Shown here: positions 9,135 to 12,701 of the stretch, one piece after another | How positions within the stretch are numbered: position 1 is the stretch's first letter | Layout: each line of letters begins with the position of its first letter | NCBI GenBank assembly: GCA_964016885.1 | Contig: CAXHJY010000240.1 | Span: 1-22,997 of the forward strand | DNA: 22,997 nucleotides | Origin: Eledone cirrhosa | Taxonomy: Eukaryota | Reading direction: 5' to 3' | Notes under the pieces: generated by a model | The model's database searches: none | The model's input: the letters and a program-made list of their open reading frames with translations, nothing else | What the model was told of the DNA's origin: nothing | Position numbers and translations under genes: made by a program

Positions 9135-10264
9135 ATAATAATAAATTAGAAGACTAAAATCCAAAGAGGGCTCGATAAGGATAAATATATATCAAATATA
9201 TAAGAACCGTAGAGCAAACATTTATTAAAATAACAGATTAAAGTTTAAGCAAAGAATCGCTGCTTTCACCCTTAATTAATAGGAGCGGTGAAAAACAATT
9301 ACTCGCAAAGACAGAACCACGTTTATGGTATAAAAGAGGTCGTAGACTAATGTTCTCTTAGGTGGTTCATAGAGACGTTCTCTGGCAATGAACGAAAAAA
9401 ACGAAGATAATACGTCATGTTTGGAGCGTGGAGAACAATAGCACGCAAAGACAAAACCACGTAAATGGTATAGCAGAAGTCGTAGACTAAAATTCTAACA
9501 AGGGGACCGAATGAATCTCCGCTACAGAGTTAAGAACAAAGTAAATAAATACAATACAGAAAGAAGTAATAGAAATAAATAAATACATACACGCAAACAA
9601 ATACGTACATACACAAGCATACGCAAAACACTTATCATAGGTATACAAAACCACGCACATATAAATATGTGTGTGTGTGTGTATGCGTGTATACAAGTAA
9701 ATGAATAATTATATAAACGTATATAAATAAATAAATACGTATATAACAAGCGCACACACATACCTACATACTTCTGTATTGTATTTATTTACTTTGTTCT
9801 TAACTCTGTAGCGGAGATTCATTCGGTCTCCTTGTTAGAATTTTAGTCTACGACTTCTGCTATACCATTTACGTGGTTTTGTCTTTGCGTGCTATTGTTC
9901 TCCACGATCCACATATGACGTATTATCTTCGTTTTTTTCGTTCATTGCCAGAGAACGTCTCTATGAACCACCTAAGAGAACATTAGTCTGCGACCTCTTT
10001 TATACCATAAACGTGGTTCTGTCTTTGCGCGTAATTGTTTTTCACCGCTCCTATTAATGACGTATTATATTCGTTTTTTCCCGTTCTTTGCCAGCGAACG
10101 TTATCACGTACCAAAGTATCGTCTTCCTGTCTTCCTCCGGTTGCAACGTTTTTTGAAATATCCACTTCTGCGTTTACAGATTGACTTTGTTAGTTTCAGA
10201 AGATCCCGTTAAGGGTGAAAGCAGCGATTCTTTGCTTAAACTTTAATCTGTTATTTTAATAAAT
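9135..10264. mobile_element. Fold-back element 1 (long inverted repeat), probably PLE-derived
   Basis: Inner arms 9276-9561 and 9772-10057 (286 bp, about 6 mismatches); outer arms 9220-9275 and 10209-10264; 210-bp spacer; 151 bp (10058-10208) present only in the right arm. Arms end in AATAAA reading outward, and the right arm runs into (TA)n. Confidence 0.7.
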
Positions 10265-10434
10265 ATATATATATGTATGTATATATATATGTATGTATAT
10301 ATATATGTATATATATATATATATATATATAAGTATTGAAATTTCCGTTGGAAACAGAAAAGGTCATAGAAATGGAGAGTGCTCTATGTAAGTATCAGAG
10401 CAAAATTAAATGTATAAAAATCAATACAATATAA

Positions 10435-10510
10435 TTACCTCATTACCAGAGGTTTCCCGAATGAGGCGAATACGAAATAAACGACTTCATTCGTTCGTCA
10501 GACGAGGCAA
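10435..10510 (-). ncRNA. Type I hammerhead ribozyme motif (mirror copy)
   Basis: Exact reverse complement of 10821-10896. Confidence 0.8.
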
Positions 10511-10820
10511 TATAAAACATGGGTAAACACTTAGAAAAACTCATCAAGAAAATCAAAAAAAGATATAGATAAATGAAATAGAAATTGAAATATATAAAAA
10601 TCTATCAAGAAATATAGTTAGGTGTGTGTATATGTATGTATATACGCTCACAGATGCGCATATACATATATGCACATCTGTGAGCGTATATACATACATA
10701 TACACACACCTAACTATATTTCTTGATAGATTTTTATATATTTCAATTTCTATTTCATTTATCTATATCTTTTTTTGATTTTCTTGATGAGTTTTTCTAA
10801 GTGTTTACCCATGTTTTATA

Positions 10821-10896
10821 TTGCCTCGTCTGACGAACGAATGAAGTCGTTTATTTCGTATTCGCCTCATTCGGGAAACCTCTGGTAATGAGGTAA
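10821..10896 (+). ncRNA. Type I hammerhead ribozyme motif
   Basis: Stem I TTGCCTCGT/ATGAGGTAA (9 bp, 2 G-U); core CTGACGA (10830-36); stem II CGAATGA/TCATTCG; GAAA (10875-78); stem III ACC-tct-GGT; predicted GUA cleavage after 10887. Position 10.1-11.1 is an atypical A-G mismatch. Confidence 0.8.
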
Positions 10897-10922
10897 TTAT
10901 ATTGTATTGATTTTTATACATT

Positions 10923-11091
10923 ATATATATATATATATATATATATATATATATATATATATATATATATATATATATATATATATATATATATATATAT
11001 ATATATATATATATGTATGTATGTATATATATATATATATATATATATATATATATATATATATATATATATATATATATATATATATATA
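10923..11091. repeat. Nearly pure (TA)n microsatellite
   Basis: Direct reading. Confidence 0.97.
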
Positions 11092-11101
11092 ATAATAAAA
11101 T

Positions 11102-11149
11102 TGAAAGCACCGATTCTTTGCTTAAACTTTAATCTGTTATTTAATAAAT
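11102..11149 (+). repeat. Solo copy of the terminal segment of fold-back element 1
   Basis: Matches 10216-10263 with one substitution (GCACCG vs GCAGCG) and is followed by (TA)n. Confidence 0.9.
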
Positions 11150-11169
11150 ATATATATATATGTATGTAC

Positions 11170-12242
11170 ATATGATAATAATGGAGCTGCGGCGCTGCAA
11201 ATGGGTTACATATGAAAAAGTTTGTCCTCATCAGTGGCCATCCAACCGTCGTAGGCATTTCGTCGCATTAAAGGCCATATACCTCAGGTTGGTGCGAGCA
11301 ACGGCTAAAAAAAGGTCGTTGGGACACGTAAATAAAGGGGACGCTAGGGTAAACAAACAAAATGGTTTAAGCAGCAGAAAGAGAGGAAGAAGGAAACAAG
11401 TCCCAGATTTCTATGAATATAAATTCGGTGGAATCGTGAACGAGAGAATAAAGACCATCAAACCTGGTTGAAATGTGAGCAAGGAAGGAATTTCGCACAG
11501 GTCTAACGGGAGGAAGAAGGGGTCTGGTCTGCGAATTCGGTAAACATAAGTTCTGTGAAGTCGCAGACGAGAGAGAGAGAGAAGAAAAAAAAAAAAAGAA
11601 AAAAAAAAATTCATACCGGCTTGGCCAAATGCCCGCGAGAAACGGATTGTGGACAGGTCAAACGGGAAGGAAGAAAGGGGAGGAGGAGAGGTAGTGACAG
11701 AGAGTGAGTGAGTGAAAGGTGAGGAAGAGGTTAACAGAGAGAGACTGCTAGAAAGGGTAAAGACACAAAGAACGAAACAGACTGGTGGCAGCGGAGGAAA
11801 AAATATATGTGTAAATATGATAATAATGGAGCTGCGGCGCTGCAAATGGGTTACATATGAAAAAGTTTGTCCTCATCAGTGGCCATCCAACCGTCGTAGG
11901 CATTTCGTCGCATTAAAGGCCATATATCTCAGGTTGGTGCGAGCAACGGCTAAAAAAAGTCGTTGGGACACGTAAATAAAGGGGACGCTAGGGTAAACAA
12001 ACAAAATGGTTTAAGCAGCAGAAAGAGAGGAAGAAGGAAACAAGTCCCAGATTTCTATGAATATAAATTCGGTGGAATCGTGAACGAGAGAATAAAGACC
12101 ATCAAACCTGGTTGAAATGTGAGCAAGGAAGGAATTTCGCACAGGTCTAACAGGAGGAAGAAGGGGTCTGGTCTGCGAATTCGTTAAACATAAGTTCTGT
12201 GAAGTCGCAGACGAGAGAGAGAGAGACGAAAAAAAAAAAAAA
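11170..12242. mobile_element. Partial tandem element, period ~645 bp (A-B-A), possibly a PLE derivative
   Basis: 11170-~11590 recurs at 11815-~12230 with a few differences; both copies end in (GA)n plus an A run. The purine-rich spacer B spans 11611-11814. Microsatellites flank both sides. Confidence 0.6.
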
Positions 12243-12243
12243 G

Positions 12244-12468
12244 TATATATATATATATAATATATATATATATATATATATATATATATATATATATATA
12301 TATAATATATATATATATATATATATATATATATATATATATATATATATATATATATATATGTATATATATATATATATGTATATATATATATATATAT
12401 GTATATATATATATATATATATATATATATATATATATATATATATATATATATATATATGTATATAT
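12244..12468. repeat. (TA)n microsatellite
   Basis: Direct reading. Confidence 0.97.
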
Positions 12469-12701
12469 ATAGGAACAAGTAAGACCCCGACGGCTGAGCT
12501 CAAGCCGTTTCGACGGCTAATTCTGTACTGAATGAAAATTTATTCACGAATAAATTTTCATTCAGTACAGAATTAGCCGTCGAAACGGCTTGAGCTCAGC
12601 CGTCGGGGTCTTATTTGTTCCTATTACCCACTCTACTACCCTAAGTATTGAGTACTTTGGTGCGTTATGGTCCACCTGGTTCCTTACCACATTTCCTTCG
12701 T
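12469..12701. mobile_element. Fold-back element 3: 156-bp palindrome (12469-12624) plus a 77-nt unpaired right extension; contains the 3' half of a hammerhead
   Basis: Centre 12546/12547, one mismatch (12479/12614). 12582-12604 reads GAAA-CGGCT-tgagctc-AGCCG-TC, i.e. hammerhead stem III and a GUC site. Confidence 0.75.

Follow-up and report, generated by a model that had tools for sequence, protein, structure and literature searches.

Penelope-like elements as the source of three head-to-head palindromes in (TA)n DNA of Eledone cirrhosa

Three head-to-head repeats and their parent families

The stretch of DNA analysed here, which we call the window, is a whole 23-kb contig (CAXHJY010000240.1, 22,997 nucleotides) of the 3.0-Gb assembly GCA_964016885.1 of Eledone cirrhosa. 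It consists mostly of (TA/TG)n, and fragments of mobile elements sit between the runs. Within 3.6 kb there lie three head-to-head inverted repeats, A, B and C (Table 1), which are the subject of this text. It is practically certain that they are the 3' ends, or pseudo-long terminal repeats (pLTRs), of three different high-copy families of Penelope-like elements (PLEs) and that they were left behind as by-products of insertion. They are probably 5'-truncated double insertions whose two arms come from separate starts of reverse transcriptase (RT) on RNA. The short distance between them is explained by the habit of the three families, whose insertions often occupy neighbouring places within a single (TA)n run (loci L011, L004, L095, L098, L117 and L127).

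A first-pass annotation, made from the letters of the window alone, had described three dissimilar fold-back elements with ends abutting (TA)n and an extra extension on one arm only. Both points were confirmed. A repeat scan of the window was swamped by (TA)n; in a masked self-BLAST the three repeats show no mutual similarity, and each is flanked by (TA)n, where a target-site duplication is unreadable. The one-sided tails are 77-88 nt long, with the outer end at 9132 or 9135 in A, at 10331 or 10332 in B and at 12701 or 12703 in C. The arms differ at 2 of 257 positions in B and at 1 of 77 in C; in A there are 6 differences in 287 between 9275-9561 and 9772-10058, and none in 52 between 9223-9274 and 10210-10261. 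The architecture said to be common to all three stands as far as head-to-head arms, (TA)n and the one-sided tail are concerned, but A is not symmetric: it is centred near 9769, with 9562-9769 as part of the tailed arm, and this arm lacks the 151 nt matching 10059-10209, by which the 5' half of its hammerhead is gone. The stretches 9837-9958 and 9977-10101 are a diverged (~80%) 140-bp internal tandem in the 3' untranslated region (UTR) of family A, found in all long copies.

The hammerhead ribozymes ascribed to the arms are complete only in both arms of B and in the right arm of A, and these have non-canonical cores; the arms of C and the left arm of A hold just the 3' half. The A core carries U4A, and by inspection a U-U replaces G10.1-C11.1, which closes stem II. 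The B hammerhead has CUGACGA, a 2-bp stem III and no G10.1-C11.1. The U3/A8 core of C lies upstream, in the long copies, which hold the most canonical ribozyme of the three families; type I folds are predicted for B and for these long C copies. A U3-A8 variant has been described in PLEs, as have hammerheads in opposite-strand pairs 100-700 bp apart (PMC4209133). When A, B and a long copy of C were scanned, no Rfam hammerhead model matched at E<=10; otherwise the Rfam scans returned sub-threshold matches of the miRNA type, because the repeats are hairpins.

The families are large. First-look candidates numbered 1,851 for B, 1,504 for C and 581 for A. Exact junctions of the short end with TA occur genome-wide 11,239 times for A, 364 times for B and 2,397 times for C (one subfamily pattern), and the tail end of C meets TA at 29,507 places (degenerate pattern); reversed-pattern controls gave 0. 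In long copies of all three families an open reading frame (ORF) with RT and GIY-YIG parts lies upstream of each arm. The RT motifs YRDD/SMG and a GIY-YIG-like endonuclease (EN) were read in a single ORF in individual A, B and C copies, and 2,393 homologues, nearly all of them without a name, were found at E<=1e-20 among 8,000 scored. Complete units of pLTR, tail, ORF and pLTR exist for A (L355, ~3.3 kb) and for C (L343, L344 and L356, ~3.6 kb), with ~40 nt (A; L090, L355) or ~91 nt (C) from the tail to the first ATG. The PLE link suggested in the first pass is thus borne out, and the arms match the 3' ends of the long copies. The description of the elements as non-coding fits the window copies only through truncation, the longer copies of all three families being coding. 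On the other side it should be noted that in the loci fetched we found neither a tail-to-ORF junction nor a pLTR-ORF-pLTR unit for B. Pfam found no match in the PLE ORFs of any of the three families.

The ORFs have RWK in B and RWR in A and C, DKT and a CxCX5C linker in all three families, and CxxC and CxH in the EN; a two-cysteine CCHH is absent. Such motifs, together with (TA)n targeting and hammerheads, are given for the Hydra clade (PMC8557442), and judged by the motif match to that description the parents are PLEs with Hydra-clade motifs. An assignment to the Neptune clade was dropped on the same grounds.

Table 1. Coordinates of the three palindromes and of a fourth, miniature insertion in the window
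Feature	Position	Strand	Remarks
A tail, 85-88 nt	9132..9219	-	in full-length copies between pLTR end and ORF start
A tailed arm, family A 3' UTR/pLTR	9220..9769	-	151-nt internal gap at 9274/9275
A short arm	9769..10264	+	ends at the family's fixed short site, then (TA)n
A variant type I hammerhead	10192..10242	+	stem I AGUUU/AAACU, core CAGAAGA, predicted cut 10237/10238
A initiator-like A	10192	+	family A 5' ends pile up there
B tail, 77-78 nt	10331..10408	-	
B tailed arm, complete hammerhead	10409..10665	-	core 10501-10495
B short arm, complete hammerhead	10666..10922	+	core 10830-10836, stem I 8-10 bp, predicted cut 10887/10888
Fourth, miniature family-A insertion	11092..11149	+	~48-nt short arm beginning at GAAA; the ~10 nt before it read directly from the sequence as the inverted tail end
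C short arm	12469..12545	-	hammerhead 3' half only
C tailed arm	12548..12624	+	initiator-like A at 12564; hammerhead cut site GUC/G at 12604/12605
C tail, 77-79 nt	12625..12703	+	in full-length copies the ORF ATG lies ~91 nt further on

Pairing of the arms and position of the 5' ends

Copies were sampled by chromosomal position and not by similarity: 30 short ends and 73 tail ends of C, 72 short ends of A and 70 of B, 69 of which aligned as anchors. The malformed reference A_L065 was left out of the anchor alignment, and a partner lying outside the fetched flank would go unnoticed. Head-to-head partners adjoined 23 of the 30 C short ends, 46 of the 73 C tail ends, 30 of the 72 A short ends and 13 of the 69 B short ends. 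Nearly all head-to-head pairs (110/112) consist of one tailed and one short arm, the remaining two being a single double-tailed locus that was sampled from either end. The first-pass annotation had postulated a recurrent integration route, and this pairing does repeat across the sampled loci. Two versions of the route had been offered, priming at two RNA positions and snap-back second-strand synthesis. The arm ends favour the former: in 46/110 pairs the 5' end of the short arm lies 15 nt or more beyond that of the tailed arm (the reverse holds in 7/110), so that neither arm contains the other, and in 19/110 the tailed arm stops inside the tail and has nothing in common with the short arm. Even where the arms do not overlap, the short one tends to end at the hot spot of the family. 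Several tailed arms stop ~10 nt or less from the short site, which is expected if the second RT runs into the first. Subfamily alleles, read at three diagnostic columns, agree in 30 of 34 C pairs (9.4 expected), and the arms of C pairs show a mean of 0.8 against 2.9 mismatches per 47 nt. The arms therefore come from one source RNA species, unless conversion has homogenised them.

The competing model keeps the PLE origin and lets the inverted arm be made by fold-back self-priming of one strand, either by snap-back of the sense cDNA or according to the antisense-template model proposed by Arkhipova et al. 2013 (PMC3846280); asymmetric pairs would result from later central deletions. Several observations speak for it and against two separate starts. 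In 57/110 pairs the 5' ends lie within 15 nt of each other, and the symmetric B and C of the window are explained equally well by a fold-back. Centres often have microhomology or self-complementary sites. The arms share alleles, as they should on this model, and arm-to-arm conversion could give shared alleles as well; deletions across the palindrome centre after insertion could mimic the asymmetry. A fold-back needs one arm to lie inside the other, and here it fails, since this is not so in the 46 pairs, and 19 pairs share no sequence at all. The asymmetry is moreover directional (46 versus 7), which a later central deletion does not predict, and the short arm in non-overlapping pairs ends at the hot spot used by solo copies. 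We therefore regard fold-back self-priming, and with it the snap-back proposal, as unlikely.

The 5' ends themselves are not scattered. Counted relative to the short site, which is the pLTR end, they cluster at -65 to -53 in C, -77 to -67 in A and -108 to -104 in B. Each cluster is centred on an A nucleotide (-61 in C, -73 in A, -105 in B) within a match to YYANWYY, which we take to be an initiator-like word. Hand tallies among the matches listed (the first 100) put 21/64 loci with solo TA junctions of family A at -73, and 15/47 of family C at -61 and 13 at -60, with none beyond -64. The genome-wide pattern for the B hot spot also matches intact elements. An extra G which is not in the element precedes the hot-spot A at 13/36 loci, against 0/18 at the next base (Fisher p=0.002). 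By analogy with full-length L1 5' junctions, where such a G has been attributed to capping (PMC11702581), it is likely to be the cap signature of an RNA 5' end. Family C has a second peak: among the matches listed 21/53 loci start exactly at the GUC/G cut (-20). Where no inverted stub is present (34 listed), 13 junctions lie at -20, 8 at -19/-18 and 1 at -21 to -25. The probability of this solo peak is about 1e-7 (run with n=35) in a test covering family C solo junctions between -32 and -17.

A number of points tell against reading these peaks as RNA ends. The RNA start sites are deduced from DNA junctions only. YYANWYY was chosen as the motif after the peaks had been seen, it has 6-9 matches per 378 nt, and the C variant TCAGTAC misses it by one base. 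The B hot spot contains TATA and could come from microhomology to the target, and 1/8 B junctions has the extra G. Small peaks at -29 and -32 in C are due to TA microhomology. A and B have no peak at the hammerhead cut sites among the position-sampled anchors, a small sample. Frangieh et al. (PMC11167929) found hammerhead cleavage dispensable in vitro and no RNA-seq ends at the cut site. Finally, the window copies run past the hot spots, to ~-495 (A), ~-257 (B) and ~-77 (C), and must therefore have been copied from the 3' pLTR or from a read-through template.

It may accordingly be asked whether the hot spots reflect pausing of RT, effects of a 3' splice site or of structure, or (TA)n microhomology, in which case twin priming may hold all the same. 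In A and C they adjoin AG motifs rich in pyrimidines, in A and B hammerhead stem I begins at the same place, and the foot of stem III is two bases away from the -20 peak of C; the TATA in the B hot spot fits as well. At variance with this are the excess of extra G at +1 only and the sharp upstream edge in C. A structural stop is expected at -21, where none of the 34 C solo junctions lies. No exon-1-like sequence recurs at the junctions. Origins of this kind seem to us an improbable explanation of the hot spots. A splice-junction origin was tried and rejected, as there is no recurrent upstream exon. Our search of the literature available to us gave no report of a strong stop at the start site, of a cap-derived G or of hammerhead-site 5' ends for PLE insertions.

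The model which best accounts for the data, and which we hold to be probably correct, is twin target-primed reverse transcription with run-off at the 5' end of the RNA. It proposes that the pLTR promoter would start a capped RNA at the initiator-like A 61, 73 or 105 nt before the pLTR end (C, A and B, respectively), followed by the tail and the ORF. The GIY-YIG endonuclease would cut both strands of (TA)n, and from each 3'-OH RT would start inside the same RNA species, in one case at the short site and in the other 77-88 nt downstream of it. The cDNAs would run off the RNA 5' end, which may be the capped start or, in family C, the hammerhead cut, or would extend further on a 3'-pLTR or read-through template as in the three window copies. 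The two cDNA 3' ends would then be joined by microhomology or a few untemplated bases. A pLTR promoter with an initiator is described in PMC2377424. The RNA 5' ends predicted by the model are capped ends at -61, -73 and -105 and, in family C, a 5'-OH end at -20.

A further reading, which we offer tentatively and consider rather doubtful, is that PLEs make a strong-stop cDNA in the manner of LTR elements: RT would start at two fixed internal sites near the RNA 5' end, proceed to the cap or to a hammerhead-cut end, and have to transfer to the 3' pLTR before the full element could be copied. The cap (-61) and the cut (-20) of family C might then define a 41-nt terminal redundancy for the jump, which is equally speculative. 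If this strong-stop reading were true, the thousands of tailed mini-palindromes would be pairs of strong-stop cDNAs joined to each other, and they would be a genomic trace, the first of its kind, of in-vivo cutting of template RNA by a PLE hammerhead.

Palindromes as units, and the rest of the window

A separate class of non-coding, retrozyme-like hairpin retroelements, as proposed in the first pass, would have to transpose as whole palindromes, with identical centres, while a by-product of insertion would have variable ones. Centres and arm lengths vary from locus to locus, so the palindromes arise afresh when an element inserts. A single class of C centre (-65/-65, with 14 nt of overlap) does repeat, in 4/23 and 4/46 pairs. 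It sits on an imperfect natural palindrome and is found in different subfamilies (L102 versus L153/L261), so it has been formed repeatedly. Among the loci fetched the centres of the window were seen only at the matching locus on C1. Retrozymes derived from PLE pLTRs have been proposed (bioRxiv 10.64898/2026.07.22.740005), and non-autonomous hairpin retrozymes moving as whole palindromes would be in line with that; the C arms have no whole ribozyme, and we find no tandem units with a complete hammerhead and no fixed non-coding unit, the centres being variable and the parents coding. The hairpin retrozyme is thus very unlikely. Transcripts in the form of long dsRNA hairpins, whose ribozyme would be masked by its own antisense arm as suggested in the first pass, are conjectural, and C holds no whole ribozyme that could be masked. 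The palindromes are dead-end by-products, that is, 5'-truncated insertions of autonomous PLEs, and not mobile units. A, B and C should be annotated as PLE pLTR stubs rather than as miniature inverted-repeat transposable elements (MITEs), miRNA hairpins or a new class of retrozymes.

Short C stubs have at some places been amplified locally, as tandem arrays with the flanking TA-rich DNA (L107, L128/L129).

A matching chromosomal locus, C1:355.16-355.18 Mb, contains B, C and the right arm of A at 100%. There the centre of A coincides exactly with an N gap of the scaffold (C1:355170169-355170500), for which the window contig supplies the other side; such palindromes may cause assembly breaks. In contigs of an independent run there are at least 15 C-type fold-back joints among the matches listed (167 more exist). 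No single read or contig in the independent Logan contigs and RAD-seq reads crosses any whole palindrome of the window, C not being spanned, and read support for B was not found there. A pile of read ends at 12571 was rejected as biology and taken to be a restriction site of the RAD library. An origin as fold-back artefacts of sequencing or assembly, or as terminal inverted repeats of a DNA transposon or MITE, would agree with the scaffold break and the lack of spanning reads, and is hardly credible, since the arms carry mismatches, the two ends of an element are unequal but fixed over thousands of loci, fold-back joints occur in independent contigs, centres vary, and the parents encode PLE RT and GIY-YIG and no transposase.

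Among the other elements of the window, 11178-12242 (minus strand) is a 645-bp head-to-tail partial tandem of 1.65 units from a fourth family with 3,063 first-look candidates. Its relatives form tandems and inverted pairs in which the second copy begins 29 nt in, a layout with a 29-nt tail. The unit contains the words CUGAUGA and GACGAAA; it has no RT-like ORF and did not pass the type I hammerhead descriptor. It is a better candidate than A, B or C for a non-autonomous, retrozyme-like partner. A 5'-truncated PLE of another clade lies between (TA)n at 1817-2919 (plus strand), where the end of a GIY-YIG ORF (Pfam PF01541, E=1.4e-4) is followed by a 3' UTR. A non-LTR retrotransposon with endonuclease-like and RT (RVT_1) frames, broken by stops and interrupted by (TA)n, occupies 14968-18089 (minus strand), and a second non-LTR RT fragment (RVT_1, E=5e-6) occupies 20897-21772 (minus strand). 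The stretches 5209-5656 and 13741-14188 are the two copies of a 448-bp direct repeat (99% identity), both of which end at a (TA/TG)n run. A small imperfect palindrome (84%) is found at 8936-8990, immediately left of A.

Comparison with known systems

The origin of inverted pLTRs and tails in PLEs, and the role of the hammerhead in vivo, are stated as open questions in PMC8557442, PMC3846280 and PMC11167929. The tens of thousands of young insertions with fixed 3' ends make it possible to discriminate between the published models by junction statistics, and these favour two independent primings over self-priming.

An inverted 5'-truncated copy with a one-sided 30-40-bp tail is typical of PLE insertions (PMC8557442, PMC3846280). 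The insertions of EN+ PLEs described there share with ours the head-to-head inverted pLTR, the tail on one arm, the 5' truncation, partial tandems, AT-rich or (TA)n targets and the pLTR hammerhead. They differ in the tail, which is 77-88 nt here against 30-40 nt, and in that very short palindromic stubs dominate family C; our junction statistics also disfavour the self-priming model of 2013 (PMC3846280). The Hydra clade (PMC8557442) has in common with our families RW(K/R), DKT, CxCX5C, CxxC/CxH around the E and N of the EN, the absence of CCHH, insertion into (TA)n and hammerheads. The units found here, ~3.3-3.6 kb, are longer than the generally <3 kb of that clade, and A and C have RWR instead of RWK.

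A biochemical parallel is the anole PLE Poseidon PAc (PMC11167929), which in vitro uses two adjacent internal RT starts, to which the tail corresponds, and cuts and extends both strands; a dimer is predicted. Two fixed internal starts bracketing the tail, an AT-rich target and cutting and extension of both strands are thus features of that system as well. In our families both starts precede the ORF, within the 5' leader and 40-90 nt ahead of the ATG, instead of lying inside it, and neither run-off at a capped start nor insertions starting at the hammerhead cut are reported in the available sections of that paper. Twin priming of L1 (PMC11702581) is similar in that the second end primes internally, the head-to-head join uses microhomology and a cap-derived extra G occurs. 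The second start of L1 has no constant position, and its two segments hardly overlap; our families use two fixed starts, and the usual overlap of the arms makes a true palindrome.

The non-LTR retrozymes (bioRxiv 10.64898/2026.07.22.740005) are likewise non-coding, have a type I hammerhead and are related to PLE pLTRs, but they are head-to-tail tandems with a complete ribozyme per unit, and ours are inverted stubs with variable centres and often half a ribozyme. The layout of A, B and C itself has thus been published before; what is new here is that the tails are longer, that the parents are of Hydra type and that statistics on the junctions separate the models.

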